64,000 bases of DNA from contig CAMOFE010000001.1 in assembly GCA_946613195.1 (NCBI GenBank), positions 8,151 through 72,150 on the forward strand, given 5' to 3'. Both the position numbers and the translations under genes were made by a program. Of the stretch, positions 2,143 through 60,702 are shown piece after piece (the stretch's first letter is position 1; each line of letters opens with the position of its first letter). This DNA is from an uncultured Alphaproteobacteria bacterium (GTDB taxonomy: Bacteria; Pseudomonadota; Alphaproteobacteria; Rs-D84). Below the pieces are notes generated by a model that did no database searches, was not told the DNA's origin, and was given only the letters and a program-made list of their open reading frames with translations.

Positions 2143-3906
2143 TTGAGAAAGATAGTGGAAAAATCCATGCTGGGTAATGCATGGGTTGTGTCGGCGCAGG
2201 GTTTGTCTGATAATCATGCCGGTGCAAATGATTTGGTTGCCAGAATATTGGAATCGCGTGGAATAACAGGTAATACGGCGGTGCAACGGTTTTTGCATCC
2301 CAGTATCAAGGAATATATGCCTGACCCGTTTGTCTTGCGTGATATGGAACGCGCTGTGAAAATAATCGCAGATTCTATACTGGCGGGTGAAAAAATAGCG
2401 ATTTATGGTGATTATGATGTTGATGGTATAACATCAACAGGTGTATTCGTAAAATATTTACGTGCATTGGGTTGTGATGTTGTTTGGCATTTGCCAACCC
2501 GCGAAGGCGAAGGTTATGGATTAAATACATCTGCAATTGATGAAATCGCAGATAGTGGCGTGCAACTGATGATAACCGTTGATTGCGGAATCAGTGGTGT
2601 AGCAGAGGTTGCACACGCACGTGCGCGTGGCATGCGTGTGGTTATAACAGACCATCATTCCCCAGACAGTGTTTTGCCAGATGCAGATGCGGTTGTTAAC
2701 CCAAAACGTGGTGATGATACATCAGAAATGTCTTACCTTGCGGGTGTCGGGGTTGCTTTTTTAACAGTTGTTGCATTAAATCGCGAATTAAAGTCGCGCA
2801 CATTGCCAGATGAGATGCGTCATACAATAGAAAATACAAATTTATTAAATTATATGGATTTTGTCGCACTGGGGACGATATGCGATACGATGCCGTTGAT
2901 TGGATTAAATCGGGCTTTTGTGGCAACAGGATTGAAAGTCTTGGATTTACGTCAGAACCTGGGGCTGCGCGTGTTGATGAATGTTGCAGGTATAAAACAC
3001 GCATCTGTTTATGCCGCAGGATTTGCAATTGGTCCGCGTCTGAATGCGGCGGGTCGCTTGTCTTCGGCGGCACCTGCATTGGAATTGTTGTTGACCGATA
3101 ATCCATTAATTGCAAATGATTTGGCGAATCGCTTGCATAATATGAACCAAGAAAGAATAGATATACAGAACGCAATAATGATACGCGCAGATGAAATTGC
3201 ACGCGAATGTTGCAGTGCAGGTCGGTGCAGTTTATTTGTTTGTGGCGAAAATTGGCATGGTGGCGTTATGGGCATTATTGCCGGACGATTAAAAGATAAA
3301 TATAATTTGCCGACATGTGTTGCGACAATATCAGATGGTGTTATAAATGGTTCTGGACGTTCTGTGCATGGCGTTGATTTGGGCAAAATAATACACCAGG
3401 CATTATCTGCGGGAATTATTACCGAAGGTGGCGGTCATGCGGCGGCGGCGGGTTTTTCATTAGATGCGACCAATCAAGATGAATTTTGCAAATTTTTGGA
3501 ACAGTCTGTATTGGAACAATTAAACGGTGTTCCGCCGTCTGACGAAATTACAGTTGATGCAGAAATAGATTCTGGGGCGGCAAATATGGAATTGGTGCGT
3601 GAATTATCTGCGCTGGCACCGTTTGGCCAGGGTAACCCAGAACCAACACTGGTTCTGCGTGGGGCGGTATTGCGATATGCGATACCTATGGGAAATGGTT
3701 CGCACTTGCGCGGTGTGGTTGCGACCAGCAATGGTTCAGATTTGTCTTTTGTTGGTTTTAATATGGTTGGAACGCCGGTTGGTGATTTTTTACTGGACGA
3801 TGCGAATACAAACACTAAAATAGCAATATTGGGTAAATTAAAAGAAAACGAATACAAAGGACATGTCAGTGCACAGTTCTTTTTAGACGACATCGCGATA
3901 ATATAA
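2143..3906 (+). CDS. recJ: Single-stranded-DNA-specific exonuclease RecJ
   Basis: DHH motifs (IYGDYDVDGITS, ITDHH), a DHHA1 region (GGGHAAAAG) and a C-terminal OB-like domain. 587 aa. Confidence 0.88.
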   Translation: MRKIVEKSMLGNAWVVSAQGLSDNHAGANDLVARILESRGITGNTAVQRFLHPSIKEYMPDPFVLRDMERAVKIIADSILAGEKIAIYGDYDVDGITSTGVFVKYLRALGCDVVWHLPTREGEGYGLNTSAIDEIADSGVQLMITVDCGISGVAEVAHARARGMRVVITDHHSPDSVLPDADAVVNPKRGDDTSEMSYLAGVGVAFLTVVALNRELKSRTLPDEMRHTIENTNLLNYMDFVALGTICDTMPLIGLNRAFVATGLKVLDLRQNLGLRVLMNVAGIKHASVYAAGFAIGPRLNAAGRLSSAAPALELLLTDNPLIANDLANRLHNMNQERIDIQNAIMIRADEIARECCSAGRCSLFVCGENWHGGVMGIIAGRLKDKYNLPTCVATISDGVINGSGRSVHGVDLGKIIHQALSAGIITEGGGHAAAAGFSLDATNQDEFCKFLEQSVLEQLNGVPPSDEITVDAEIDSGAANMELVRELSALAPFGQGNPEPTLVLRGAVLRYAIPMGNGSHLRGVVATSNGSDLSFVGFNMVGTPVGDFLLDDANTNTKIAILGKLKENEYKGHVSAQFFLDDIAII

Positions 3907-8149: not shown

Positions 8150-8304
8150 AAAACCGTACGCAACGCGCATTATAATCTTTTTTCTGCCAATTGCAAGTTT
8201 TTATCATATGTGGTTTGGGTATCCATACCTATATAAATCTGCGATTTCATCTGGTAAACTGATTATATGTTGATATCCAATCTTTATAACCAAAAGGAGA
8301 GAAA

Positions 8305-22235: not shown

Positions 22236-22703
22236 TTATTTACCTTTGGTGTTTTTCATAATTAAATTTGTCAAAAATTGTAATTGGGCATTGCAATTGA
22301 TTTTCTGTTTTTCCAGTTCCTGTATTGCTTGGGTATGTTCTGCAATTTTCCGTTTGTGTTCGGCGATTTTTAATTGAATATCGCGGGATTGTTGTTGCAG
22401 CGTTTGACTGGCTGTCTGCATTTCAGATACAGTTTTATATTTCATATTTTCATTAAAATACATGGCCAGTTTCATATTTATTTCACCCAAGGTGATTTTA
22501 CCCATATTGCGTATATGGTGTAAATTATCTTGATGTTTTAACAATTCACCAATGGTGCGTATATCCCCATAACCTTTTAAGGTATTAGATGCACGTGTTG
22601 ATAAATTCAACACATCAATAGAAACATCAAATTCATCGTTTTTCATATTATTCTCCATCCATAACTTTTGGTACAGCAAAGTATCCACGTGATACGCCGG
22701 CAT
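22236..22703 (-). CDS. RNA polymerase alpha-subunit C-terminal-domain (alpha-CTD)-like protein with C-terminal coiled coil
   Basis: Segment DVLNLSTRASNTLKGYGDIRTIGELL resembles the alpha-CTD helix-hairpin-helix, followed by a heptad-rich tail (IAEHKRKIAEHTQAIQELEKQK). The likely start is an internal Met just after the gatC stop. Lies between gatC and gatA. Confidence 0.45.
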   Translation of the reverse strand: MPAYHVDTLLYQKLWMENNMKNDEFDVSIDVLNLSTRASNTLKGYGDIRTIGELLKHQDNLHHIRNMGKITLGEINMKLAMYFNENMKYKTVSEMQTASQTLQQQSRDIQLKIAEHKRKIAEHTQAIQELEKQKINCNAQLQFLTNLIMKNTKGK

Positions 22704-27559: not shown

Positions 27560-28180
27560 TTAATTTTCTTGGGTTGCCAATGCTTTTGCCTGGGCAAACA
27601 GGGTCAGTGATTGTCCCAACAATCCATTTGTAAATGTTTGCGCCAAAATACCGTCTGGTTCTGTATTGCCCAAGTGTTGCAACAATCTGTCTGCGTGCGA
27701 CATATAATTATCCAGGTTGCGTGCAACCTCGGTATCTAATTTAATTGCGCGTCGCAACTTTTCCAATGCAAACGGATTTTTTGCATATTCATCCATAATG
27801 CCGCCAATCGCCCGCCATAACGGGTGTTCAGATGTCTGGCGGGGCATTATATCAATCGCCGCCATAATCGGAATCAAACATTGTAACAAGTCTTGATAAA
27901 TAATTTCTGCGTGTTCTGCAACCGCATTGGTGGCATATTTGCTTTTTAATACAGATTGCATTTTTACAATCAAATTATACTGATATTCCAGAGTTTTGTT
28001 TATTTGCTTGTTTTGTACAGATATACGATAAATTGACCATGCAATTATGCCACATATAACGGCAATAATGCCCAATATTATAAAAACAAAAGTGTCTTGC
28101 ATTTCTTTTCCCTGGTTTTGGACATACCCAAGTATATCATGTTTTTCCGATTCGCGCGATTTTATCTTTTGGTAAATCAC
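27560..28180 (-). CDS. Membrane-anchored hypothetical protein
   Basis: One TM (FVFIILGIIAVICGIIAWSI) then a ~150-aa helical domain. Diverges from the secretin operon. Confidence 0.45.
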   Translation of the reverse strand: MIYQKIKSRESEKHDILGYVQNQGKEMQDTFVFIILGIIAVICGIIAWSIYRISVQNKQINKTLEYQYNLIVKMQSVLKSKYATNAVAEHAEIIYQDLLQCLIPIMAAIDIMPRQTSEHPLWRAIGGIMDEYAKNPFALEKLRRAIKLDTEVARNLDNYMSHADRLLQHLGNTEPDGILAQTFTNGLLGQSLTLFAQAKALATQEN

Positions 28181-28285: not shown

Positions 28286-29233
28286 ATGTTTCGTAAGATA
28301 TTGATAATAGCGATGTTTGCAACTGCGGCGGGTTATTGTTTCGCCGAAGATAATGTTCACCAAGTTGTAACGAGTGAGGTTTTTTATGACGAAGAATATC
28401 GTCGGATTGATGATAATGTGTATGAAGATATCGTTGAAGAAACCGAAGTGCCTGCGTGGCCATTAGTTGGTTCTGATGCAGACGTAGAAGTTACATGTGA
28501 TCGTGGTGCGTGCAGTAATGTGCGTACACCTGTGGTCGCGCAAACGCCTGTGCCACGACGCGCAGATAATATTCGTATTGTTTCCAAAATTGGTGATGAT
28601 ATGGTTGTTGAAAATAATATAAATATGAGCGGTGCCGGTAACCAATGGTCGGGTGGTGCAGATATGGTGCATGGTATGCAAATCCCGGCGGGGTTTGATA
28701 ACGAATGTTATAATGGCGCAGAAATGCCGTTGTTGCATCGTGAAATTCTGGAAGATGACGGTGGCAGTGTATTGGCTGTATCACGTGGACCATACAATCG
28801 TTGTGGTGGATATGTAAACGATTACGATACATATGTTGCGAAAAGTAAATTAAGCGAAACAGAAAAATTGCGTTGGTTGGCGATGGATGATGCAACAACA
28901 GAATCAACAAAATCTGTTCGCGGTGATATTGTTGTTGATGTAACAACAGATGCGGATGCGGCCCCAGAATTACCAGACCAGGTGCGGTCTTGGGTTGTTG
29001 CAAATGGACAAACATTACGCGAAGTTTTGCAAAGTTGGTGTGATAAAGATGGTTGGGATTTAGTATGGGCAACATCGCGCGAATACCCGATAGAGGCCAG
29101 TGCGGTGTTCAAGGGACGTTTCGTTGATGTTGCATCTGCGCTGGTGCGGAACTTTGGTCGTGCAACACCAATCCCATATGCAAAATTTTACAAGGGAAAT
29201 CGTGTTTTAGTCGTATCCACCACCGAGGAGTAA
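28286..29233 (+). CDS. Secreted TcpQ-domain protein (type IVb pilus secretin partner, TcpQ/PilM-like)
   Basis: Signal peptide (..AAGYCFA|ED). C-terminal ~90 aa (..WVVANGQTLREVLQSWCDKDGWDLVWATSREYPIEASAVFKGRFVDVASALV..FYKGNRVLVV) matches the TcpQ family pattern. Located immediately upstream of a lipoprotein secretin, as tcpQ is to tcpC. Confidence 0.5.
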   Translation: MFRKILIIAMFATAAGYCFAEDNVHQVVTSEVFYDEEYRRIDDNVYEDIVEETEVPAWPLVGSDADVEVTCDRGACSNVRTPVVAQTPVPRRADNIRIVSKIGDDMVVENNINMSGAGNQWSGGADMVHGMQIPAGFDNECYNGAEMPLLHREILEDDGGSVLAVSRGPYNRCGGYVNDYDTYVAKSKLSETEKLRWLAMDDATTESTKSVRGDIVVDVTTDADAAPELPDQVRSWVVANGQTLREVLQSWCDKDGWDLVWATSREYPIEASAVFKGRFVDVASALVRNFGRATPIPYAKFYKGNRVLVVSTTEE

Positions 29234-29274: not shown

Positions 29275-30903
29275 ATGAAAAAAGTATTAAAACTTTTTGT
29301 GTTATGTTTGGCTGTCGGCACGATGGTGGCAGGTTGTGCAAAAAAAGAATCTGCCAAGGTTGCGGCCGCAGTTGATCAAAACTTTATCAATGCGTATGAC
29401 GCGTTTGAGATGGCAAAAAATCCACGCGCCAAGGTCGCCAGTGGCGATACTGTTTCTATGTCCGAAGGTGTTTGGTTGGGTAATAAATCAACCGTGTTGG
29501 AACACAAAAATAATCTGCCATCCCAGTTTGAGACGGATACAGGTGTAACAATTTTGTTAAACGAACCTGTTACACTGCAAGTGTTTGCAAATAATATAAA
29601 TTCCATTACAGGTATCCAGGTAAAAATAGACAGCCAAATTAATTCTGAAAAATTAAAAAGGACAATGAATATTGCCTACACTGGGAAACTGTCGGATTTG
29701 TTGTCCCAGGTCGCAACAGATTTAGATTTGCTGTGGTACTATGACAAAAGTTCTATTGTGTTTTACGAAACAGAAACAAAAACATTTACATTATATGCGC
29801 TGGGGACAGATGTGTCGTATCAATCATCTGTTCAGACAGATGAAGGAACGCAGGTGTCTTTGGAATCAACATTGCGCGAATGGGAAGAGGTTGAAAAGAC
29901 AATCGCATCTATTATTGGTAATACTGATAACGCGGAATTTACCGTTTCGCGCAGTTTAGGAACAATAACAGTTACCGCGCCACCGTCTGTGCAGACGCGT
30001 GTTGGTGAATATATTGCGCGTCAAAACCGCAGATTGTCGCAACTGGTAACGATTGATGTAAAAGTATTACAGGTATCAATTACTAATAATTCGGCATTTG
30101 GCCTGAATTTGGCGGCGGCGATTAACGCGGCATCAGGATTGAATATCGTTGCAAATCCCAAGAATAATTTAGCCGCGACCGAGGCCAGTTCAATGAATAT
30201 TGCTGTATTATCTAATACATTGTCGGCAATGACAGGTGCAACGCATTTGGTTAATGGTGTTGAAACAGCCGGCGCATATACATCTGATGATATAAACAAT
30301 GGTTCGTTGTCTGGTGTTGCAGGTTCCAGTGCGCTGATAGAGGCATTGGCCAAGCAGGGTAAAGTGTCTTTAGTTACAAATGTTGGTGTTACAACGCGTA
30401 ATAATCGTGTTGCCCCGGTAAATAATACGCGTACCACAGGTTATATTAAACGATTTGAATCGCGTACATTTACATCTGTGGAATCATCAACTGTGGATCA
30501 AGATAACTTGGAAACAGGTTTTGCTATGCAGTTGTTGCCAAATGTGCTGGAAAACGGGAAAATATTGTTGCTGTTCAGAATGTCTGTGCGTGAATTAATC
30601 AAAATGTCCAGCCAAACGATTGGCGAGGTTACCTTGCAATTACCCGAAGTTGAAGAACGCAGTTTTATGCAAGAAGTTATTATGGAATCAGGTCAAATGT
30701 TGGTCGTGTCCGGGTTTGAGAAGCAAACAAATAACGATACGCGTTATGGTTTGGGCGATCCTGATTTTATGGCGTTATCTGGTTCGCGTGAATCTGCTGC
30801 GCAACGCGATGTTTTGGTTGTTATATTAACACCACAAGTTTTGGTCAGTCCAATGGATGCCGAACGTAGTATTCAGCAACATTGGGGTGCACCATTAAAT
30901 TAA
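29275..30903 (+). CDS. Lipoprotein secretin of the type IVb pilus class (TcpC/BfpB/PilN-like)
   Basis: Lipobox (MVAGC). C-terminal secretin domain (..GQMLVVSGFEKQTNNDTRYGLGDPDFMALSGSRESAAQRDVLVVILTPQVL). 542 aa, the size of T4b secretins. Confidence 0.7.
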   Translation: MKKVLKLFVLCLAVGTMVAGCAKKESAKVAAAVDQNFINAYDAFEMAKNPRAKVASGDTVSMSEGVWLGNKSTVLEHKNNLPSQFETDTGVTILLNEPVTLQVFANNINSITGIQVKIDSQINSEKLKRTMNIAYTGKLSDLLSQVATDLDLLWYYDKSSIVFYETETKTFTLYALGTDVSYQSSVQTDEGTQVSLESTLREWEEVEKTIASIIGNTDNAEFTVSRSLGTITVTAPPSVQTRVGEYIARQNRRLSQLVTIDVKVLQVSITNNSAFGLNLAAAINAASGLNIVANPKNNLAATEASSMNIAVLSNTLSAMTGATHLVNGVETAGAYTSDDINNGSLSGVAGSSALIEALAKQGKVSLVTNVGVTTRNNRVAPVNNTRTTGYIKRFESRTFTSVESSTVDQDNLETGFAMQLLPNVLENGKILLLFRMSVRELIKMSSQTIGEVTLQLPEVEERSFMQEVIMESGQMLVVSGFEKQTNNDTRYGLGDPDFMALSGSRESAAQRDVLVVILTPQVLVSPMDAERSIQQHWGAPLN

Positions 30904-30955: not shown

Positions 30956-31387
30956 ATGAAAAAAAGAGAGGGACCGCAAGCGCGGATATTAAGGGACTTA
31001 GAGATGCGTTTGTTAAAGTTATGTTTAGGATGTTCTGTGATTATTGCAACATTTAATTGTTGTATATTCAATGCGGATGCTGAAATTGCCAGTGTTGGTT
31101 ATGTTACCAGCAAGATATCAAATACTGTTTCAGATCAATCAACAAATGACCAGGCAGCCAGTGCGGCCGCAACATATACATTCAGTTCTAATGCCAATAA
31201 TTTAACATCTGGTACTGTTGCGCCTGCGCGTTTACCAGATGCAACCACATCCGCCAAAGGTGCGGTTATGATTGGCACAACGGCCAGCACGGTTGCTGTT
31301 GGAAATGATCAACGGTTTGATACGGTCGCAACAACTGCACCATCGGGCAGTCCAGATACAGGTCGTGCATTTATTTGGTTTCAATAA
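30956..31387 (+). CDS. Small secreted Ser/Thr/Ala-rich protein with phage-tail-fibre-like repeat
   Basis: Hydrophobic/Cys N-terminal segment (LLKLCLGCSVIIATFNCC), then ..NLTSGTVAPARLPDATTSAKGAVMIGTTASTVAVGNDQR.., which resembles the phage tail-fibre repeat (ATT..KG.V.LAT....AGTD..KAVTP..L). Confidence 0.4.
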   Translation: MKKREGPQARILRDLEMRLLKLCLGCSVIIATFNCCIFNADAEIASVGYVTSKISNTVSDQSTNDQAASAAATYTFSSNANNLTSGTVAPARLPDATTSAKGAVMIGTTASTVAVGNDQRFDTVATTAPSGSPDTGRAFIWFQ

Positions 31388-33026: not shown

Positions 33027-33836
33027 ATGAAAAAAACAGTTATCTTTTTAATATCTGCTTTGCTTTTAATGCCGGCATTTGCGGCGCCTGGGGATTCTGC
33101 ACGGCGCAGTATGTCTGATCAAATGGTTGCCGCACCACGTGCAACGGCATCGGTGGGTCAGTTAAATGCGACATCGGCGGCCAAAAAGTCCAGTATCAAG
33201 GTTGAAACAGATATGATTGCGGCACCGGTTGCAGATGAACAAAATCGCCGTGATAAAGAAAAAGAAGCGTGCCAGGGTAATAATATCGGTATTGGAAATA
33301 CTTTTGTTTGGGCGTCGCGTTACAGTAATTCATCCAGTTATGCATCTATGGTAGAAGATGTCAACAACCCTGAAAATAACGTTTGTTTTGTCAAGGTTGA
33401 TATGAAATCCAGCGATTCGCGTATAAATTTATCTGATATCCCCAGTAAATATTTTGTTATGGGTAATACAATTAATTGTGGTTCTTGGGTTGACGAAGAC
33501 GCATTACAAAAACGTATCTTGGATGCCAAGAAAACAGGACGCGCGTTGGCAACCGTTGGCGGTGTTGTTGGTGGTGCGGGCTTGGGCGTTGGCGCAATGG
33601 AATTGTTTGGTAACAAATTAATTGGTGGCAAGGTTATGGGTCAAAAAGATGAAAAACTGACAGAAACCGAAGTGTTTGTATCCCAGATGTTGGTTCTGAA
33701 ACAAGAAAATCGCGCAGAATATGATAAAATAATTAAAGAGTTGGAAAGCATACAATCGGAATGCAAGAATAATAACATTAAAGAATGTGCTGAATTGGAT
33801 TATGCCGCTTTGCTGAAAACACAGGATAACCAATAA
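33027..33836 (+). CDS. Secreted hypothetical protein with Gly-zipper segment
   Basis: Signal peptide (..LLMPAFA). 269 aa. Gly-zipper GGVVGGAGLGVGAMELFG near the C-terminal third, then a charged helical tail with 2 Cys. Confidence 0.5.
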   Translation: MKKTVIFLISALLLMPAFAAPGDSARRSMSDQMVAAPRATASVGQLNATSAAKKSSIKVETDMIAAPVADEQNRRDKEKEACQGNNIGIGNTFVWASRYSNSSSYASMVEDVNNPENNVCFVKVDMKSSDSRINLSDIPSKYFVMGNTINCGSWVDEDALQKRILDAKKTGRALATVGGVVGGAGLGVGAMELFGNKLIGGKVMGQKDEKLTETEVFVSQMLVLKQENRAEYDKIIKELESIQSECKNNNIKECAELDYAALLKTQDNQ

Positions 33837-33899: not shown

Positions 33900-34928
33900 A
33901 TGCATATGTCTGAATTATTTGCGCGTTTGTTGATTTTGCGTACACCTGGAATTGGCCCGGCGAAATATAGTGCACTGATTCGTAAATTTGGCGATGTTCG
34001 TACCGCCGCAGATAGTTTACAATCAAACACCGCGCATTGTGATATGGTGCGCCGTGAAATGGATTTGGCGGCACAATTAAATATACATTATATATGTGAT
34101 GACGATTCGGTATATCCTGCAAATTTGCGGATGGTTAAAAATCATCCACCTGTAATCAGTGTGCGCGGAAATATTGAAACATTATCGCGACCGATTGTGT
34201 CAATTGTTGGTACACGTCATGCAACAGGTGTTGGTATGCGATTCGTTGCAGATTTATCACGTGAATTTGCATCGCGTGGTTTTGCTGTTGCATCTGGGAT
34301 GGCGATTGGATGTGATACCGCCGCGCATCGTGGTGCATTAAATGTGGTTGGCACGAATCAGACTATTGCAGTTTTGGCGGGTGGTGTGGATTATATCTGG
34401 CCGGCTGAAAACGAATCGCTGTATTGGGAAATTGTCGCGCGCGGTGCGGTTATCAGTGAAATGCCTGTGGGTTTTGTCCCCATCGCAACTAATTTTATTC
34501 AACGTAATCGTTGGGTTGCAGGATTGTGTGATAAATTAATACTGGGCGAGGCGGATATAAATTCAGGCAGTATGGCAACAGCCCGATTCGCAATAGAATA
34601 CGGTCGCGAAATTTGGGCGATACCGTCGCATCCCGCAGATTCGCGCAGCACGGGCCCAAATTCGTTGATTGCGTCCCACGCGGCGAAATTATGTTCGGGG
34701 GTATCGGACTTTTTTGGCGATGACAAAACATCTGCCAAATCAGAAAAAAATGAAAAAAATTTAGATTCGGAAAATTCTGTTTTAGATGCGTTGGGAACAA
34801 TTCCTGTGTCTGAATCTGTATTGGCACAAATTGTCAAAAAATCTGTTTCGGAAATAAAACGCGAATTGGTCGTGTTAGAATTACAAGGTTTGGCGCGCAA
34901 AACAGATACAGGTTATGTCCGTATATGA
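33900..34928 (+). CDS. dprA: DNA-processing protein A (DprA/Smf)
   Basis: Rossmann-like DprA core (IVGTRHAT..G......LA..G..VASGMA.G.D..AH.GAL) and a C-terminal winged-helix tail. 342 aa. Confidence 0.85.
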   Translation: MHMSELFARLLILRTPGIGPAKYSALIRKFGDVRTAADSLQSNTAHCDMVRREMDLAAQLNIHYICDDDSVYPANLRMVKNHPPVISVRGNIETLSRPIVSIVGTRHATGVGMRFVADLSREFASRGFAVASGMAIGCDTAAHRGALNVVGTNQTIAVLAGGVDYIWPAENESLYWEIVARGAVISEMPVGFVPIATNFIQRNRWVAGLCDKLILGEADINSGSMATARFAIEYGREIWAIPSHPADSRSTGPNSLIASHAAKLCSGVSDFFGDDKTSAKSEKNEKNLDSENSVLDALGTIPVSESVLAQIVKKSVSEIKRELVVLELQGLARKTDTGYVRI

Positions 34929-36651: not shown

Positions 36652-37701
36652 ATGCGTGAATGTAATGCGATGGGGGAAATTCCAATGTTATTAAAACGTT
36701 TTGCAATATTTACAATTCTGGCGGGTGTGTTTGCAACATATGCTGCCACCGCCGCGGTTGACCCAAGAACAGAGTGTGTAAGAGAGGGTTGGTATACTAC
36801 TTATTATTATAATACTTCTGAAATAATTCAGGCAGATTATGCCATTTATTTTGATAATAATGTATCAACTATACCTGAAGATTGTAAAACAGAAGTGCAA
36901 AGTGTAATTAATGAATTGAAAAAGAAAAACAACGATATTGAAACAATATTATTGTTTGGTTCGGCAGATGCAACAGCGGGTGCAAATAGGGATGCAGAAT
37001 TAGGTATGAAACGTGCAAATACTGTTGCTAATTTATTAAAATATGCTGGTTTGGATTTTTGTTATTCTGAAAAATGTGATAATAGAACAGCAAAAGTATC
37101 CATGGGTGACGCAATGAATCGGGCGCAAGGATATATGGATTCTGATTTTTTTGCACGTGCTGTTTATATGTTCGTGATTTACAAGGGTGATGTTTGCAAT
37201 AAATCTACTATGGGCAGTATAGATGGTTTGTTAAGTCGCGTTAATAAACTATTAACAGAAAAACCAAATGATACGACATTAACAAAGGTAAAATCACAGT
37301 TAGAAACGGCAAAACAAACTTGTGGCGAAGTGAATAAAGTATTATTCCGTTCAGAACGTGAAAGTATTATGACGGCAATCAAATATGCAATTGATAATTT
37401 CCCTGAATTAAAATCTGTGGTAACTGTTGATGTCAGTTTATCTGCGCGAATAATGGCAATCAGGGCACGGTTGTCGGGAATGAAACGTTCTGCATGGAAA
37501 ACGACAGACGGTAAATTTAACACTGCGCGTCTGGCATCGGATTCAGTTGCGGGTGTTGTGCTGGGAACCGCCGGCGGTTTAATCACCAGTCATCTGGTTA
37601 AAAAGAGCCAATTAAAGAAAGGTATGGAAGATATTAAATGTGCAATCGGTGGACAAGAGGTTGCATCATACGGTGATGACTTTACTGTTGGGGTACGCTA
37701 A
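36652..37701 (+). CDS. Secreted protein with OmpA/MotB-like peptidoglycan-binding domain in its N-terminal half
   Basis: Signal peptide. ..ILLFGSADATAGANRDAELGMKRANTVANLL..FFARAVYMFVI resembles the OmpA_C-like core (G.TD..G....N..LS..RA..V...L, NRRVE.). The C-terminal 170 aa are unknown. Confidence 0.5.
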   Translation: MRECNAMGEIPMLLKRFAIFTILAGVFATYAATAAVDPRTECVREGWYTTYYYNTSEIIQADYAIYFDNNVSTIPEDCKTEVQSVINELKKKNNDIETILLFGSADATAGANRDAELGMKRANTVANLLKYAGLDFCYSEKCDNRTAKVSMGDAMNRAQGYMDSDFFARAVYMFVIYKGDVCNKSTMGSIDGLLSRVNKLLTEKPNDTTLTKVKSQLETAKQTCGEVNKVLFRSERESIMTAIKYAIDNFPELKSVVTVDVSLSARIMAIRARLSGMKRSAWKTTDGKFNTARLASDSVAGVVLGTAGGLITSHLVKKSQLKKGMEDIKCAIGGQEVASYGDDFTVGVR

Positions 37702-37792: not shown

Positions 37793-39715
37793 TTGAACAG
37801 TGTCTTGTTTTATGATAAAATTGCATTCAGAGAGAATATGAAATCAATTACGCGTTTTTTTGCGTTTGTTTTATGCGCGGTGCCACTGTGCGCGGCGGCT
37901 GCGCCTGTTGCAACCACCGCCGGCAGTAATTTAACCGCATATAATCCAACCACAGGTGCAACAAATAATAATATGTGGAATACACTGATGAATGGACGCG
38001 GTGCGGCGGGCGGAAATAACGCGGCACCGGCAGATTTTGGAAACTGTAATGCACTGATAATTCGTTGCGCATCACCAAAGTGTGCTAATGGTGGATGCAC
38101 AGATATGGATGTCGCATCATCTATTGTGCGCGGATGTGTTAATTCCAATGAAAATTGTAAAAAATATGGCGATGATTTGGTTGAATACATATCTGCACAG
38201 TTGGTCGCATCTTCTAATGCAAAAATAAATGCTGCCAATGTTGCGGCGCAAAATGCCACTGCTGCGGCTGTGGCACAACAAAATGCCCAGCAAATGGCAG
38301 AAATGCAACAACAGATGCAACAGATGCAGGCAGAAATGGCGCAACAAAATGCGGCAACTGTTCAGGCAATGCAGGCGGCACTGGATGAACAGAAACAATT
38401 AACCGCAGATGCAATCGCAAATGCAAACGCAACACAACAAAGTGCGCCGTCTTATACTGCGCCGGTGCCAACAAATTCAGAATATGATAATGGGTTAACC
38501 AACGCCCAGATTATTGCGGCGCAAAATGGTGTGTCTGCGGATGTTTTGGCGCGTGAACAAATTGTTGGTGAAATAATGTCAAAACTGGAAAATGCAGAAA
38601 CCGCATTAAAGACATTAAAGACCACAATGCAAGATGCATTTGATTATGCGGGTTGTGATTCATTTGGTAATAATTGCAGTGGGCCAAAACGCGTGTCTGC
38701 GTTCAAGTCGCGTGCGATAAAATTCTTTGATCCATATAATACGGTGTTGGACGAATTATATGATGCGTTAATCACTGCCCAGGCCGCCGGTGTTGATATA
38801 ACAGATATCTATATGATGCTGGAAGGGTCATGTAATGTCTGGGGACAATATTTGTGTTCACAGACAGAACTTGGTGCGTATGCCGATGGGAGTAGTTTGC
38901 CAAAAAGTTGTGATAAGAATACTGGTAAAAGTATAAAATCTGGCAGTACCAAAGGGGGGCGTGATTGTGTAATTGGGCAACCAATTCCCCCCGAAGACAG
39001 TCCATTGTGCACACTGCAAAAAACATACGCCGATGGCGAAAGTGTGCGTCGCGCATGGTTGTACCCCGAAGAAGGTGATGATGAAACCCAGGGTGGTGCA
39101 ATACGCGTTGGGTGTGCGTCGTCTGCGCTGGATAATTCTAAATTCTTTCGCAGTCGCAAAAAACAGGCACAAATTGATATTGAAATACTGGAACGTATAA
39201 TTGAACAAGATGCATCTGCGTCCAGTGGTTTTACCATGTTTGGTGCGCGCCGGGACGATGGCGCACGTCGTGAACAAACATACGGTGCATGTGCGATTGG
39301 CGAAACAATGTATGCAGATTTGCAGAAAATAACCGCAACAAAAAAATTGCCAGACAAAATATGTATGAAACAACGCGATGCGATTGAAAAAGTCCGCAAT
39401 GATGCCCCATTGGCACTTGCAACAGGTGGCATGTCCAAGACAATCTTGAAATATCACGAACAATGTGAAAAAGAAGATAGAGAGAGTGTTACGGATTATT
39501 GGGAATGTTTGTGTCCAAAAATAGGTAATGGTTACACAAAATCTAGTGAAGGTGAATATTGTTCTTGCGGAACGGATTCTAATAAATATTGGGGCAAGGA
39601 TAATTATTACGAATGTTTGACCGATGACCAAATATGCACACGTAAACAGTTTTGTACAGGTACACAAAAATCACAATGGAATCAGACTGAAAAAACATGT
39701 GGTGATTGCAAATAA
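37793..39715 (+). CDS. Large secreted Cys-rich protein with Ala/Gln-rich coiled-coil segment, unknown function
   Basis: Signal peptide at the internal MKSITRFFAFVLCAVPLCAAAAP. ~30 Cys in CxxC/CxnC patterns in the N- and C-terminal regions. Central region QQNAQQMAEMQQQMQQMQAEMAQQNAATVQAMQAAL. 640 aa. Confidence 0.5.
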   Translation: MNSVLFYDKIAFRENMKSITRFFAFVLCAVPLCAAAAPVATTAGSNLTAYNPTTGATNNNMWNTLMNGRGAAGGNNAAPADFGNCNALIIRCASPKCANGGCTDMDVASSIVRGCVNSNENCKKYGDDLVEYISAQLVASSNAKINAANVAAQNATAAAVAQQNAQQMAEMQQQMQQMQAEMAQQNAATVQAMQAALDEQKQLTADAIANANATQQSAPSYTAPVPTNSEYDNGLTNAQIIAAQNGVSADVLAREQIVGEIMSKLENAETALKTLKTTMQDAFDYAGCDSFGNNCSGPKRVSAFKSRAIKFFDPYNTVLDELYDALITAQAAGVDITDIYMMLEGSCNVWGQYLCSQTELGAYADGSSLPKSCDKNTGKSIKSGSTKGGRDCVIGQPIPPEDSPLCTLQKTYADGESVRRAWLYPEEGDDETQGGAIRVGCASSALDNSKFFRSRKKQAQIDIEILERIIEQDASASSGFTMFGARRDDGARREQTYGACAIGETMYADLQKITATKKLPDKICMKQRDAIEKVRNDAPLALATGGMSKTILKYHEQCEKEDRESVTDYWECLCPKIGNGYTKSSEGEYCSCGTDSNKYWGKDNYYECLTDDQICTRKQFCTGTQKSQWNQTEKTCGDCK

Positions 39716-51365: not shown

Positions 51366-52811
51366 TTATACCACGTCTGAATGGAAATATGCATATATTT
51401 TTTCTGCGGCGGCTTTACCCAGATTTGGAACCTGAATCAAACTGGCCAGGGGCGCATCCATAATTGCACGGACACTGCCATAATGATTTAACAGGGCGCG
51501 TTTGCGAACAGCACCGATGCCGTCAATTTCGTCCAATACAGATGCAGTCATTTGTTTTGCGCGCACTGTTCTGTGATATGTAATGACGAAACGGTGTGCT
51601 TCGTCACGGACGGCGCGCAACATTAAAAACAAAGGTGAATCTTTTGGCATATCGCGATATTCAGAACCATCTGGCATAATAAAGTGTTCATCGCCATTTC
51701 TGACTTCGCCCTTGGTAACACCAAATATTGGAATATGGGGTGCGGTTTCATGTGCGATATTCCATTGTGCCGGACCACCATCAACAATTATTAAATCCAG
51801 TTTTGGACCGCGTGAAATTGCACGTGATACAAATTCATTCATCATCGCAATATCATTCCCAGCGCGCGCCGAATCATTTAACTTGAAATGTCGGTACCCT
51901 GATTTATCAAATCCATTATGACCAAATGTTATCATGGCACCCACAGGACTGCGACCGAACAGGTGAGAATTATCAAACACGCCTGCTAAATTTATTTTAA
52001 TGCCTAATAATTTTTCTAAATCTGATACATTTTTATCCCAATCAAAATTCGTGCTATACAGCGGTTTTGCCTGTATACCGCGATTTGATGTGTGTGTTAA
52101 TGCCGCAATTTTATCACGGTAAATTGCAGCCATCTCAAAATCCATTTTGTCGGATGCGCGTTTCATTGCATCAGATAAATCTGTAATAATTGGTTCGCTG
52201 TCGCCACGCAATATACGTCGTGCCAAATGTACATTTTCAGAATAGTGTTTCTGGGGCAGTGTACATGGCGCACTGCATCGGCCGATTTGATATAATAAAC
52301 ACGGGCGCGTACGATTGTTCATAAATGTGTCTGTACAGGTCCGAATCTGGCATACCTTTTGTATTGTTTTAATTGTTTCATTTAATGCGGTAACAGATGG
52401 ATATGGACCGAATACATCGCGTCGTTGGGAAATCTTTCCGCGAAATTTTAATAATCGTGGAAATTCATGATTAGTCAGTGCAATCATCGGATACATTTTC
52501 CCATCGGTCAGCATTATGTTGTATTTTGGCTTTAATGTTTTTATCAGTTCTTGTTCGCGAACCAATGCATCCGATTCGGTTGGGGTAACTTCCCATTCAA
52601 CGCGGGTAACCAGCGTGCGCATAACCTGTTTATGTGTTTCCAGTTTTGACACATCTGTATATTGTTTCAGACGATTAAACAGATTCTTGGCCTTGCCCAC
52701 GTACAGCAACGCACCACCCGCATCATACATCTTGTAAATGCCGGGTGCTTTGGGACTATTTTCAATCAAATCAGAAAATTGAATATTCATAACCTTTATG
52801 ATAGAATACAA
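51366..52811 (-). CDS. uvrC: Excinuclease ABC subunit C (compact form)
   Basis: N-terminal GIY-YIG (PGIYKMYDAGGALLYVGKAKNL..R), C-terminal RNase H-like domain and (HhH)2 (GIGAVRKRALLNHYGS). Only 481 aa. Confidence 0.8.
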   Translation of the reverse strand: MYSIIKVMNIQFSDLIENSPKAPGIYKMYDAGGALLYVGKAKNLFNRLKQYTDVSKLETHKQVMRTLVTRVEWEVTPTESDALVREQELIKTLKPKYNIMLTDGKMYPMIALTNHEFPRLLKFRGKISQRRDVFGPYPSVTALNETIKTIQKVCQIRTCTDTFMNNRTRPCLLYQIGRCSAPCTLPQKHYSENVHLARRILRGDSEPIITDLSDAMKRASDKMDFEMAAIYRDKIAALTHTSNRGIQAKPLYSTNFDWDKNVSDLEKLLGIKINLAGVFDNSHLFGRSPVGAMITFGHNGFDKSGYRHFKLNDSARAGNDIAMMNEFVSRAISRGPKLDLIIVDGGPAQWNIAHETAPHIPIFGVTKGEVRNGDEHFIMPDGSEYRDMPKDSPLFLMLRAVRDEAHRFVITYHRTVRAKQMTASVLDEIDGIGAVRKRALLNHYGSVRAIMDAPLASLIQVPNLGKAAAEKIYAYFHSDVV

Positions 52812-52832
52812 TTATGTAAATAGCAAATAAAG

Positions 52833-53306
52833 GTGTGTGCAATGAAACAAGAATCTGGACGCTCTATGATTGAAATGATGGGCGTGTTGGCAATTATGGG
52901 GGTTATCACGGTTGGGGCGACATTGTTGATATCAACAGCAATGCGCACACAAAAACGCAGCCAAGTTAACGATGAAATTATTCAACTGGTTGTCGGTGTG
53001 CGCCAATTATTGGGCGAATATGACGATTATTCGCATATTAACAACAGCACTATATTTGGTGCGATTGGTATGTCGGATAAAAACCCATATGGCGGAACGT
53101 ATGAAATTTCTGTAAATCCGTCAAATACGCGCCAGTTCGTGATTTCTATCAATGGTTTGCCAAAATCTGATTGCGAATATTTAATCACACGCGCATGGTC
53201 TGATTCTGTGGGATATACTGTGTCTGGCGGACGTGAAGGCGGTGCAACCGGCAATTGTGGTGATACAGACGCACGAAATTCTGTTCAGATAATATATGGT
53301 GAATAA
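52833..53306 (+). CDS. Type IV pilin (class III signal peptide; prepilin)
   Basis: ..KQESG|RSMIEMMGVLAIMGVITVGATLLI. Gly at -1, Glu at +5, ~20-residue hydrophobic helix, and a C-terminal Cys pair (SDCEYL...GNCGD) for the D-region disulfide. 157 aa. Confidence 0.65.
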   Translation: MCAMKQESGRSMIEMMGVLAIMGVITVGATLLISTAMRTQKRSQVNDEIIQLVVGVRQLLGEYDDYSHINNSTIFGAIGMSDKNPYGGTYEISVNPSNTRQFVISINGLPKSDCEYLITRAWSDSVGYTVSGGREGGATGNCGDTDARNSVQIIYGE

Positions 53307-59652: not shown

Positions 59653-60702
59653 TTAACAACCAACAACCTTATCATTGCTGGCCATAATATTTTTTATCTC
59701 GTCCATGCAGTTTTCGGTTATGTTTTGCATCGCCAACCCCATCCAATCGCGCGGATTAAAGTTTTCAGGGTGTGCGGTCAAAAATTCACGCACACCCGCG
59801 GTGAACGCCAGACGTGAATCACTGTCCACATTTATTTTGCAGATGTTCATTTGTGTGGCGCGCCTTAGTTGTGCGGTGTCAATTCCGCGGGCATCACCCA
59901 GTTTCCCACCGTGCGCATTTATTGATTTAACCAAGTGTGCTGGCACAGATGATGCACCATGCAGCACCAGTGGAAATTTTGGTAATTTTTTTGCTATTTT
60001 TTCCAAGATATCAAATCGTAACGATTCATCATCGGATTTTCGCTTATATGCGCCATGACTGGTGCCGATGGCGATTGCCAATGAATCAACATTTGTGTCT
60101 TTTACAAATTTCACAACATCGTCTGGGTTTGTGTATTGTGAATATTCTGATTTTGTGTTTTCGTCTTCTATGCCAGACAGTGTGCCCAGTTCTGCCTCTA
60201 CACAAACATCGTATTTATGTGCGTATTCGGCAACGCGTCGCGACAGTTTTGTATTTTCATCATATGGCATTGCAGATGCATCAATCATAACAGATGAAAA
60301 GCCCAAGTCTATCGCGTGCTGGCATAAATCATACGAATGACCATGATCCAGGTGCAGTGCCACACATTCTGAATCTGATAATTTTAATCCGCCAATCATT
60401 GACATCAGCATATCGTCCCCCATATATTTTAGCGCACTTTCTGATACCGCCAATATAACAGGACTGTGTGTTTTGCGTGCCGCCGCCATAATCGCGGTCA
60501 GTGTTTCCATATTATAAAAATTAAATGCCGGTACTGCATAATTGCGCGTAATTGCATCACTGAACATATCACGGGTGTTAACCAGACCGAATTTGGAATA
60601 TTTTCTCATTTGTGTTCCTTTGTTTTTGTTTATTATATCACAGTGCAAGGGGCTGTGTAAGTGGTTAGTTAGTCCTTGACAACAGGCTGATTTGTGCAAC
60701 AA
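59653..60702 (-). CDS. fba: Class II fructose-bisphosphate aldolase
   Basis: ..AVPAFNFYNMETLTAIM..PVIL.., HLDHG zinc-binding motif and ..HGASS... The likely start is the internal MRKYSK. Confidence 0.9.
   Translation of the reverse strand: MLHKSACCQGLTNHLHSPLHCDIINKNKGTQMRKYSKFGLVNTRDMFSDAITRNYAVPAFNFYNMETLTAIMAAARKTHSPVILAVSESALKYMGDDMLMSMIGGLKLSDSECVALHLDHGHSYDLCQHAIDLGFSSVMIDASAMPYDENTKLSRRVAEYAHKYDVCVEAELGTLSGIEDENTKSEYSQYTNPDDVVKFVKDTNVDSLAIAIGTSHGAYKRKSDDESLRFDILEKIAKKLPKFPLVLHGASSVPAHLVKSINAHGGKLGDARGIDTAQLRRATQMNICKINVDSDSRLAFTAGVREFLTAHPENFNPRDWMGLAMQNITENCMDEIKNIMASNDKVVGC

Follow-up and report, generated by a model that had tools for sequence, protein, structure and literature searches.

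What is a lone type IV pilin gene doing between uvrC and rluC/D, with no other pilus gene beside it? The question is raised by a 64-kb stretch of contig CAMOFE010000001.1 from an uncultured alphaproteobacterium of the order Rs-D84 (positions 8,151 to 72,150; this whole stretch is referred to here as the window), in which an open reading frame (ORF) on the + strand ends with a stop codon at 53306 and was put down in a preliminary description as an orphan type IV pilin gene. We propose, with a probability of about 0.72, that the gene encodes the structural, most likely the major, pilin of a chromosomally encoded type IVb pilus akin to the R64 thin pilus, the toxin-coregulated pilus (TCP), and the bundle-forming pilus (BFP). 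Its host is a member of the Candidatus Enterousia lineage, gut bacteria with reported genome sizes below 1 Mb.

The start of the gene is revised here. The preliminary description began it at GTG 52833, which falls within a Shine-Dalgarno-like AAAGGTG. ATG 52842, which gives a product of 154 amino acids (aa), is almost certainly the true start, since the orthologs are mostly 154 aa long and all begin M-x-x-E-x-G-R-S-M-I-E, and the prepilin gene is accordingly placed at 52842..53306 (+) and its product assigned to the "GRS" family of type IVb-class (PilS/TcpA/bundlin-like) pilins. The N-terminus of the protein consists of MKQESG followed by RSMIEMMGVLAIMGVITVGATLLISTAM, i.e., a short hydrophilic leader and then about 27 mostly hydrophobic residues. 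In a class III signal peptide, a hydrophilic leader with Gly or Ala as its last residue precedes a stretch of 20-25 residues that are mostly hydrophobic (PMC10191384), and the protein has this organization, with a leader ending in Gly, a hydrophobic stretch, and a Glu at position +5. The predicted leader peptide (MKQESG, 52842..52859, +) would be cleaved after Gly6, a residue that is invariant both in the orthologs and in the wider family, and the hydrophobic alpha1-N segment of the mature pilin (R7-M34, 52860..52943, +) carries the Glu at +5 (E11) as well as an invariant Arg at +1. When the window was translated in all six frames, only one such prepilin N-terminus was found.

Across 25 orthologs of 70-84% identity, the residues G6, R7, S8, M9, I10, E11, C111, and C139 are invariant, and E11 is invariant in all three alignments that we made. 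In the broad family, the Gly at -1, Arg at +1, Glu at +5, and the first cysteine (C111) show no variation either, and C139 is conserved in at least 90% of members. The region from C111 to C139 (53172..53258, +; codons 53172-53174 and 53256-53258) is predicted to be a disulfide-bonded D-region. The C-terminal cysteine pair that the preliminary description had pointed out is conserved, and it aligns with the cysteines of bundlin; the bond between the two cysteines is itself a prediction.

Structure prediction, which had been suggested as a check on the gene, returned a pilin fold. The AlphaFold2 model built on the ortholog alignment (predicted local distance difference test [pLDDT] 74, predicted template modeling score 0.68, with low confidence in the first 25 residues) has a helix from residue 7 to residue 57 and a small alpha/beta head of 4-5 strands with pLDDT 75-90, which is the lollipop arrangement of a long alpha1 on an antiparallel beta-sheet head. 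When the model was compared to the PDB using Foldseek, the top 12 matches were all type IVb pilins, and there was no other meaningful match. The best was the TcpA filament 8uhf (E 1.9e-4, probability 1.0), and further matches included the pilus of enterotoxigenic Escherichia coli (ETEC) CFA/III (9iuf), CofA (3s0t), TcpA (3hrv), and the Salmonella Typhi PilS (1q5f). The matches to TcpA and CofA had TM-scores of 0.49-0.64 at sequence identities of 18-29%.

Profile searches led to the same class. A hidden Markov model (HMM) made from 26 diverse members of the family and searched against PDB sequences matched TcpA (8uhf, E 3.9e-11) over residues 12-119, i.e., alpha1 and the first strands, bundlin (1zwt, E 6.6e-9) over residues 34-153, where the two cysteines also align, and CofA (E 7e-4). 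Because the 1zwt chain lacks the N-terminal helix, the bundlin match rests on the globular domain. Pfam PilS was matched by 10 of the 26 members and Bundlin by 4, and hhalign aligned the Enterousia orthologs to the operon-linked pilins described below with 99.6% probability (E 1.9e-24, 152 columns). The profile, Foldseek, and hhalign results all agree with the earlier call of a type IV pilin, and the homology together with the predicted fold supports placing the window protein in the type IVb class. The family itself is broad, with 1093 representatives of 50% clusters at E<=1e-3 (108 at E<=1e-10) ranging from 145 to 270 aa, and a scan of one genome per GTDB species returned at least 576 relatives. 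All 21 of the full-length relatives inspected begin [S/A]GR[S/T][M/I/L][I/V/L]E.

The preliminary description had also noted a separate secretin module near 29.3 kb, together with dprA, and both are real (dprA, 33900-34928). The module consists of a gene for a TcpQ-domain protein with an N-terminal signal sequence, a PilL/TcpQ-like secretin partner (28286..29233, +; Pfam TcpQ 62.7 bits against a gathering cutoff [GA] of 27), followed by a gene for a PilN-like type IVb secretin lipoprotein (29275..30903, +) with the lipobox VAGC at residues 18-21 and a Pfam Secretin match of 50.1 bits, above GA. The best NCBIfam match of the secretin is TIGR02520, the type IVB PilN family, at 235 bits, which is below the equivalog cutoff of 287.65. 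The window holds the combination of a PilN-type lipoprotein secretin and a PilL/TcpQ-domain partner that is characteristic of R64-type systems. A metagenome scan with the window secretin retrieved 80 loci at 75-88% identity, in 72 of which a TcpQ gene adjoins the secretin gene, and in three loci (L116, L128, and L146) a stretch of no more than 20 kb includes both uvrC-pilin and the TcpQ-secretin pair. Divergent from the TcpQ gene lies a gene for a conserved 206-aa protein with a single transmembrane segment (27560..28180, -), which is beside TcpQ in 59 of the 80 loci and has a weak DUF4064 match; it is possibly, though uncertainly, a component of the outer-membrane secretin module. Directly 3' of the secretin gene is a 143-aa ORF (30956-31387, +) without a Pfam or NCBIfam match, homologs of which are 120-582 aa long and occur in 6 of the 80 secretin loci.

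The full operon to which these genes would correspond is found in other gut Alphaproteobacteria, at four loci that carry paralogs of the pilin (L062, L070, L072, and L073). Each contains a TcpQ lipoprotein, a secretin, PAP_PilO (PF06864), a 520-aa protein, a T2SSE ATPase (219 bits), and a T2SSF platform protein, and the 3' part of the operon has a weak pilin-like ORF and one or two GRS pilins, with a PilT-like ATPase, comparable to BfpF, in L072 and L073 only. The component set of such operons is that of the R64 thin-pilus variant of type IVb pili (PMC3984277). The GRS pilins in these operons match PilS with 60.5 bits (the L072 paralog) and Bundlin with 50.3 bits. Exactly three genes of the L072 operon have homologs in the window: the TcpQ protein (54% identical over the C-terminal 85 aa), the secretin (31% identity over 569 aa, E 3e-71), and the pilin (35% identity). 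Clustering of a GRS pilin with assembly machinery was seen only for the paralogs of the four loci and not for the window pilin. When the L072 ATPase was used as a query, the top 120 matches were all its close relatives, at least 82% identical to it.

Other gut Alphaproteobacteria also carry GRS pilin paralogs both scattered and in tandem, with as many as three side by side and several loci per genome. Expansions of this sort are found in L056 (9983-12301), L070 (6287-7491), L073 (8443-9762), L075, L076, and L079, most of them far from the pilus operon. Four contigs with GRS pilins (L009, L045, L055, and L075) were found in bins labeled Muribaculaceae, Bacteroides fragilis, or Bacteroidaceae; full Enterousia-type synteny is present on L009, L045, and L055, and all four are probably mis-binned contigs in public metagenome-assembled genomes (MAGs).

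PilO2, PilP, the PilQ ATPase, and the PilR platform protein are not encoded in the 64-kb window and are present as a module in its relatives. In L151, a gene for a PilO-like protein is found 7 kb downstream of the secretin gene, together with the first part of an ATPase gene, and this PilO retrieved 867 homologs, some of which are named "type 4b pilus protein PilO2" by NCBI. The conserved module in Enterousia-type relatives comprises DUF374, lpxK, lpxC, a 104-aa lipoprotein, PilO2 (416 aa), a PilP-like protein (TIGR03021 29 bits, below cutoff), a T2SSE ATPase (540 aa), and a T2SSF platform protein (356 aa). The PilO2 module and the TcpQ-secretin genes share a contig in L177 and L178, and in L151, L177, and L178 a distance of 7 kb separates the module from a TcpQ-secretin pair, the secretin of which shares 79% identity with that of the window. 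Unannotated ORFs of 189, 104, 246, and 255 aa around the PilO2 module were read by eye, and none was judged to be a peptidase or a pilin. Two other genes near these modules are recorded here as observations. An Mtd_N gene (L169 and L170, 5279-5752, -) is found about 4 kb upstream of the PilO2 module on an Enterousia-type contig, Mtd_N being the N-terminal domain of the tropism determinant of diversity-generating retroelements (PF18454), and in L177 a gene for an ADP-ribosyltransferase-like ART-PolyVal protein (PF18760; 3708-4346, -) lies between the secretin and lpxK-PilO2 modules.

From these loci, the Enterousia lineage would hold the core type IVb machine in at least three dispersed pieces, i.e., the pilin, the TcpQ-secretin pair, and the PilO2/PilP-like/ATPase/platform module, although all three were not seen in one genome. 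In the best explanation, an ancestral single operon, still intact in other gut Alphaproteobacteria, was broken into at least three pieces among housekeeping genes. This agrees with the preliminary description in its suggestion of a dispersed type IV pilus system, and among the readings offered there, the one with the pilin as substrate of the type IVb-like secretin is best supported.

Among known systems, a close comparison is the R64 thin-pilus variant (PilL-PilV, with pilL2-pilV2 of PAPI-1 and the Burkholderia pseudomallei Tfp7 with TcpQ2), whose component set would be shared by the lineage. The window contributes a TcpQ/PilL-type protein, a PilN-type secretin, and a PilS-class pilin to this set, and the relatives contribute a PF06864 PilO2, a PilP-like protein, an ATPase, and a platform protein. 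Unlike in R64, the genes are spread over at least three loci among housekeeping genes rather than collected in a single operon or on a mobile element; a PilV-type minor pilin, a shufflon, and a PilT lytic transglycosylase were not seen in the sampled loci; the secretin and PilP-like protein fall under NCBIfam equivalog cutoffs; and the window pilin has a 6-aa leader, a mature size of 148 aa, and an Arg at +1. TcpA of the Vibrio cholerae TCP and CofA of the ETEC CFA/III pilus are the best structural matches, with TcpA also the best sequence-profile match. Both of these have leaders of 25-30 aa, Met at +1, and about 190-200 aa in the mature form, and both are encoded in one operon with their machinery. 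Bundlin (BfpA), from the BFP of enteropathogenic E. coli, matches the globular domain by profile, and paralogs of the window pilin match Pfam Bundlin; unlike bundlin, the window pilin itself has no Bundlin HMM match, and a retraction ATPase was not seen in Enterousia-type loci. PilO2 is homologous to BfpC (PMC3984277).

On this comparison, the pilin would work as follows. The prepilin would be inserted into the inner membrane by Sec/SRP via its class III signal peptide, and an A24 prepilin peptidase would cut after Gly6 to leave the new N-terminus R-S-M-I-E. A PilQ/GspE-type ATPase and a GspF-type, PilR-like platform protein, with PilO2/PilP-like partners, would then extract and polymerize the pilin, and the fibre would exit through the PilN-like lipoprotein secretin aided by its TcpQ-domain partner. 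Our data show the homology, the fold class, the conservation, the synteny, and the presence of the other modules in the lineage; processing and assembly are read here from homology, and expression and function are inferred as well. Apart from the Arg at +1, the mechanism is expected to be as in known type IVb pili. The role of the pilus is likely attachment or aggregation, whether to a partner cell, host mucus, or epithelium, given that characterized type IVb pili (TCP, BFP, CFA/III, and R64/PAPI-1) serve adhesion, aggregation, or mating-pair formation and that a partner-dependent lifestyle has been proposed for Rs-D84.

The region upstream of the gene is conserved as well. A consensus scan found a sigma-70-like promoter at 52779..52807 (+), consisting of TTGAAT, a 17-nt spacer, and TAGAAT with a TG-extended -10, the -35 of which overlaps the first codons of the divergent uvrC. 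The upstream block AATTGAATATTCAT...TATGATAgAATA is at least 80% conserved in 45 orthologous upstream regions, and the promoter, an element in the 5' leader, and the GAGG/GGGG Shine-Dalgarno reach the same level (at least 80%) across 45 species. The 5' leader (52808..52841, +) contains a conserved AAATAGCAAATA element (AAATAGCAAA element) and the Shine-Dalgarno-like AAAGGTG (about 52829-52835); the element sits between the -10 box and the Shine-Dalgarno and is kept in about 45 species. An Rfam scan of the window found two tRNAs only, neither of them near the pilin gene. Only 18 nt separate the pilin gene from rluC/D in the window (5 nt in relatives), a terminator is absent from this gap, and the pilin gene is probably the first gene of a housekeeping transcription unit. 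The conserved, strong-looking promoter suggests constitutive expression.

The neighbors of the gene are all housekeeping genes, with pgsA and uvrC on the - strand and rluC/D, asmA, a gene with a DAC domain, dnaN, and efp on the + strand, so the observation that no pilus gene adjoins the pilin holds. The rest of the window contains cell-wall, tRNA-amidotransferase, Suf, DnaA, GyrB, DnaJ, and AcrB-type efflux genes. The arrangement of pgsA-uvrC divergent from pilin-rluC/D-asmA recurs in about 50 species-level genomes, and its pgsA-uvrC/pilin part is retained even where pilin identity drops to 40-47%. The reading frame is intact, and mostly 154 aa long, in more than 100 pilin clusters. For 185 ortholog pairs, the ratio of nonsynonymous to synonymous substitution rates (dN/dS, Nei-Gojobori) had a median of 0.17 and a maximum of 0.30, and the C-terminal region was the most variable yet still constrained; by this measure, the pilin is under purifying selection. 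With 718 database homologs, the 1093 cluster representatives given above, and a dN/dS of 0.17, the gene is, on sequence grounds, a genuine conserved gene and not a chance ORF. It also evolves like its housekeeping neighbors, as its cross-species identity to the window (54-75%) is comparable to that of uvrC (62-81%), rluC/D (56-73%), and asmA (34-54%).

Several of our results weigh against an exposed major pilin of a type IVb pilus, and this housekeeping-like conservation is one of them. Such conservation is atypical for an exposed major pilin, and it keeps alive the readings discussed below in which the protein is part of a pseudopilus for secretion or a minor pilin. The N-terminus is another. 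The leader, which the preliminary description regarded as textbook, does have Gly at -1 and Glu at +5, but has Arg rather than Phe or Met at +1, and scores below threshold with both methylation-motif HMMs (17.8 bits with Pfam N_methyl PF07963, below the GA of 21.2, and 11.7 bits with TIGR02532, below 16.3). The Arg at +1 probably lowers the score, and 12 of the 26 relatives match the motif at E<0.01. This Arg is invariant throughout the GRS family and is, to our knowledge, unprecedented among characterized pilins. Moreover, the window pilin matches neither Pfam PilS (PF08805) nor Bundlin (PF05307) at E<=10, and its 6-aa leader and 148-aa mature size are like those of type IVa rather than classical type IVb pilins. 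Leader length and mature size are now held to be non-discriminatory for these two classes (PMC10191384).

Components that were looked for and not found add to this side. The window and about 180 related loci were screened by motif and by hydropathy for an A24 prepilin peptidase, and none was detected; the candidates that came up, phosphoglycerate kinase and PlsY, are false positives. The PAPI-1 and B. pseudomallei Tfp7 operons likewise have no peptidase gene inside the cluster, and their peptidase is borrowed from elsewhere (PMC3984277). Nor did the window and the related loci yield a minor pilin, a retraction ATPase was missing from the window and from Enterousia-type loci, and the PilU peptidase and PilV minor pilin were in none of the sampled loci. 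In these loci, no contig carried both the pilin and the ATPase/platform module, and no pilin-PilO2 pair from one assembly was found by proximity of NCBI protein accessions. A GspE-type Walker A motif was absent from every window ORF of at least 50 aa; near the pilin orthologs, candidates with a Walker A were either ORFs of 424-448 aa, judged by size and motif to be ClpX-like, or short (236-250 aa).

A bolder proposal can be made, which we hold to be speculative and rather unlikely. In it, the GRS pilins, with their invariant Gly-Arg-Ser-Met-[Ile/Val]-Glu, short leader, and small head of type IVb type, would be a distinct, undescribed type IVb sub-class. In the apparently partner-dependent Rs-D84/Enterousia lineage, their filament would be constitutive and near-essential, and the cell would use it to attach to a partner or to take up material from it. 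The Arg at +1 would then reflect non-canonical processing or assembly, by means of either a dedicated peptidase or an Arg1-Glu5 salt bridge that replaces the contact of the N-methyl amine. If true, a partner-directed GRS filament would be analogous to the type IV pili of Saccharibacteria.

Improbable, but with several points to be weighed, is that the pilin forms not a long adhesive fibre but a short pseudopilus in the periplasm, by which proteins would be secreted through the secretin in the manner of a type II secretion system (T2SS), as TCP exports TcpF. Public annotations do name the window pilin a T2SS protein or GspH family protein, the window pilin shares the N-terminal class III signal peptide and hydrophobic helix with GspG and GspH, a housekeeping-like dN/dS would suit a structure that is not exposed, the retraction ATPase is missing from Enterousia-type loci, and the genome codes for many Cys-rich secreted proteins that lack an assigned function. 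We nevertheless rejected the GspG/GspH naming, as TIGR01708 (GspH) scores 17 bits against a cutoff of 80 and covers residues 5-38 only, and the GspH and PilA equivalog HMMs alike match just the N-terminal helix. Unlike GspG and GspH, the window pilin has a globular domain of type IVb pilus type, and its partner genes for TcpQ, the PilN-like secretin, and PilO2 are of type IVb pilus types too. No GspC/L/M or GspI/J/K-like genes were seen in the sampled regions.

A pilus for DNA uptake, which the preliminary description had raised as an option, gained no support and is quite improbable. The pilin would in this case feed a cell unable to make nucleotides, acting with DprA and RecJ. Some type IV pili do take up DNA, and the window has recJ (2143-3906) in addition to dprA, but DprA and RecJ are near-universal, and we know of no role in transformation for the TCP, BFP, CFA/III, or R64/PAPI-1 pili. 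Rs-D84 genomes are described as being without biosynthetic pathways for key metabolites (PMC12306168). Neither comEC nor comEA was seen in the window and the regions reached, Com pilin HMMs did not match the window pilin, and only 1 of the 26 relatives matched ComP_DUS (E 0.007). Both the pilin and its machinery are type IVb/R64-like and not Com-like.

It is very improbable that the gene encodes a minor or accessory pilin whose major subunit is encoded elsewhere in the genome, even though the type 4 filaments known always contain minor pilins (PMC10191384). The strong conservation would be more typical of a core minor pilin, and the many scattered GRS-type paralogs of other gut Alphaproteobacteria also fit. 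Nevertheless, the protein keeps Glu5, which is absent from tip subunits, and is by full-length homology the ortholog of the pilins in the PilS position of intact operons. The promoter and Shine-Dalgarno look strong, and a search of the window and of about 130 Enterousia-type loci gave no second N-terminus resembling a prepilin of whatever class. Finally, a decaying, functionless remnant of a lost pilus operon, to which the fragmented operon and the peptidase not found in the sampled regions might point, is effectively refuted by the conservation data, with the frame intact in more than 100 clusters, a dN/dS of 0.17, a conserved promoter, a secretin conserved at 75-88%, and PilO2, ATPase, and platform genes intact in relatives, and pseudogene accumulation is absent from such genomes (PMC12306168).

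A few other features of the window were recorded. A gene of the class II fructose-bisphosphate aldolase family (59653-60702, -; PF01116, 308.9 bits) is kept in relatives, and fructose-bisphosphate aldolase has been stated to be absent from Rs-D84 genomes (PMC12306168). A stand-alone 155-aa protein (22236-22703, -) resembles the C-terminal domain of the RNA polymerase alpha subunit (PF03118, 46.9 bits) and has a coiled-coil tail as judged by eye. Cys-rich secreted or surface proteins that have no family assignment are encoded at 33027-33836, 36652-37701, and 37793-39715 (+), and at 14766-15533 of L169, one of them with an OmpA domain; they may be surface or interaction proteins of a reduced-genome organism.

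The close homologs of the pilin come from gut MAGs (animal and human) that are labeled Candidatus Enterousia or uncultured Alphaproteobacteria/Rickettsiales. Enterousia belongs to the order Rs-D84. Its genomes measure 0.75-1.0 Mb and are without respiration and most biosynthesis, and dependence on a partner organism has been proposed (PMC12306168). Type IV pilus genes were reported for the unrelated UBA9783 lineage only, with none listed for Rs-D84 (PMC12306168). Our results would mean that the Rs-D84/Enterousia lineage keeps a complete-looking type IVb pilus, the genes of which are split among housekeeping operons and conserved as these are. Dispersed pilus systems of this kind escape operon-based detection, and the database naming of the pilin as T2SS or GspH is corrected. 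The pilin is set apart by an operon broken up among the core genes of a reduced genome, by how strongly it is conserved, and by the Arg at +1 that never varies, a minor but testable peculiarity as regards filament packing and the specificity of the prepilin peptidase. In other respects the pilin is fairly ordinary. The pilus is a concrete candidate for the structure by which these widespread, uncultured gut Alphaproteobacteria may attach to other cells or to the host.

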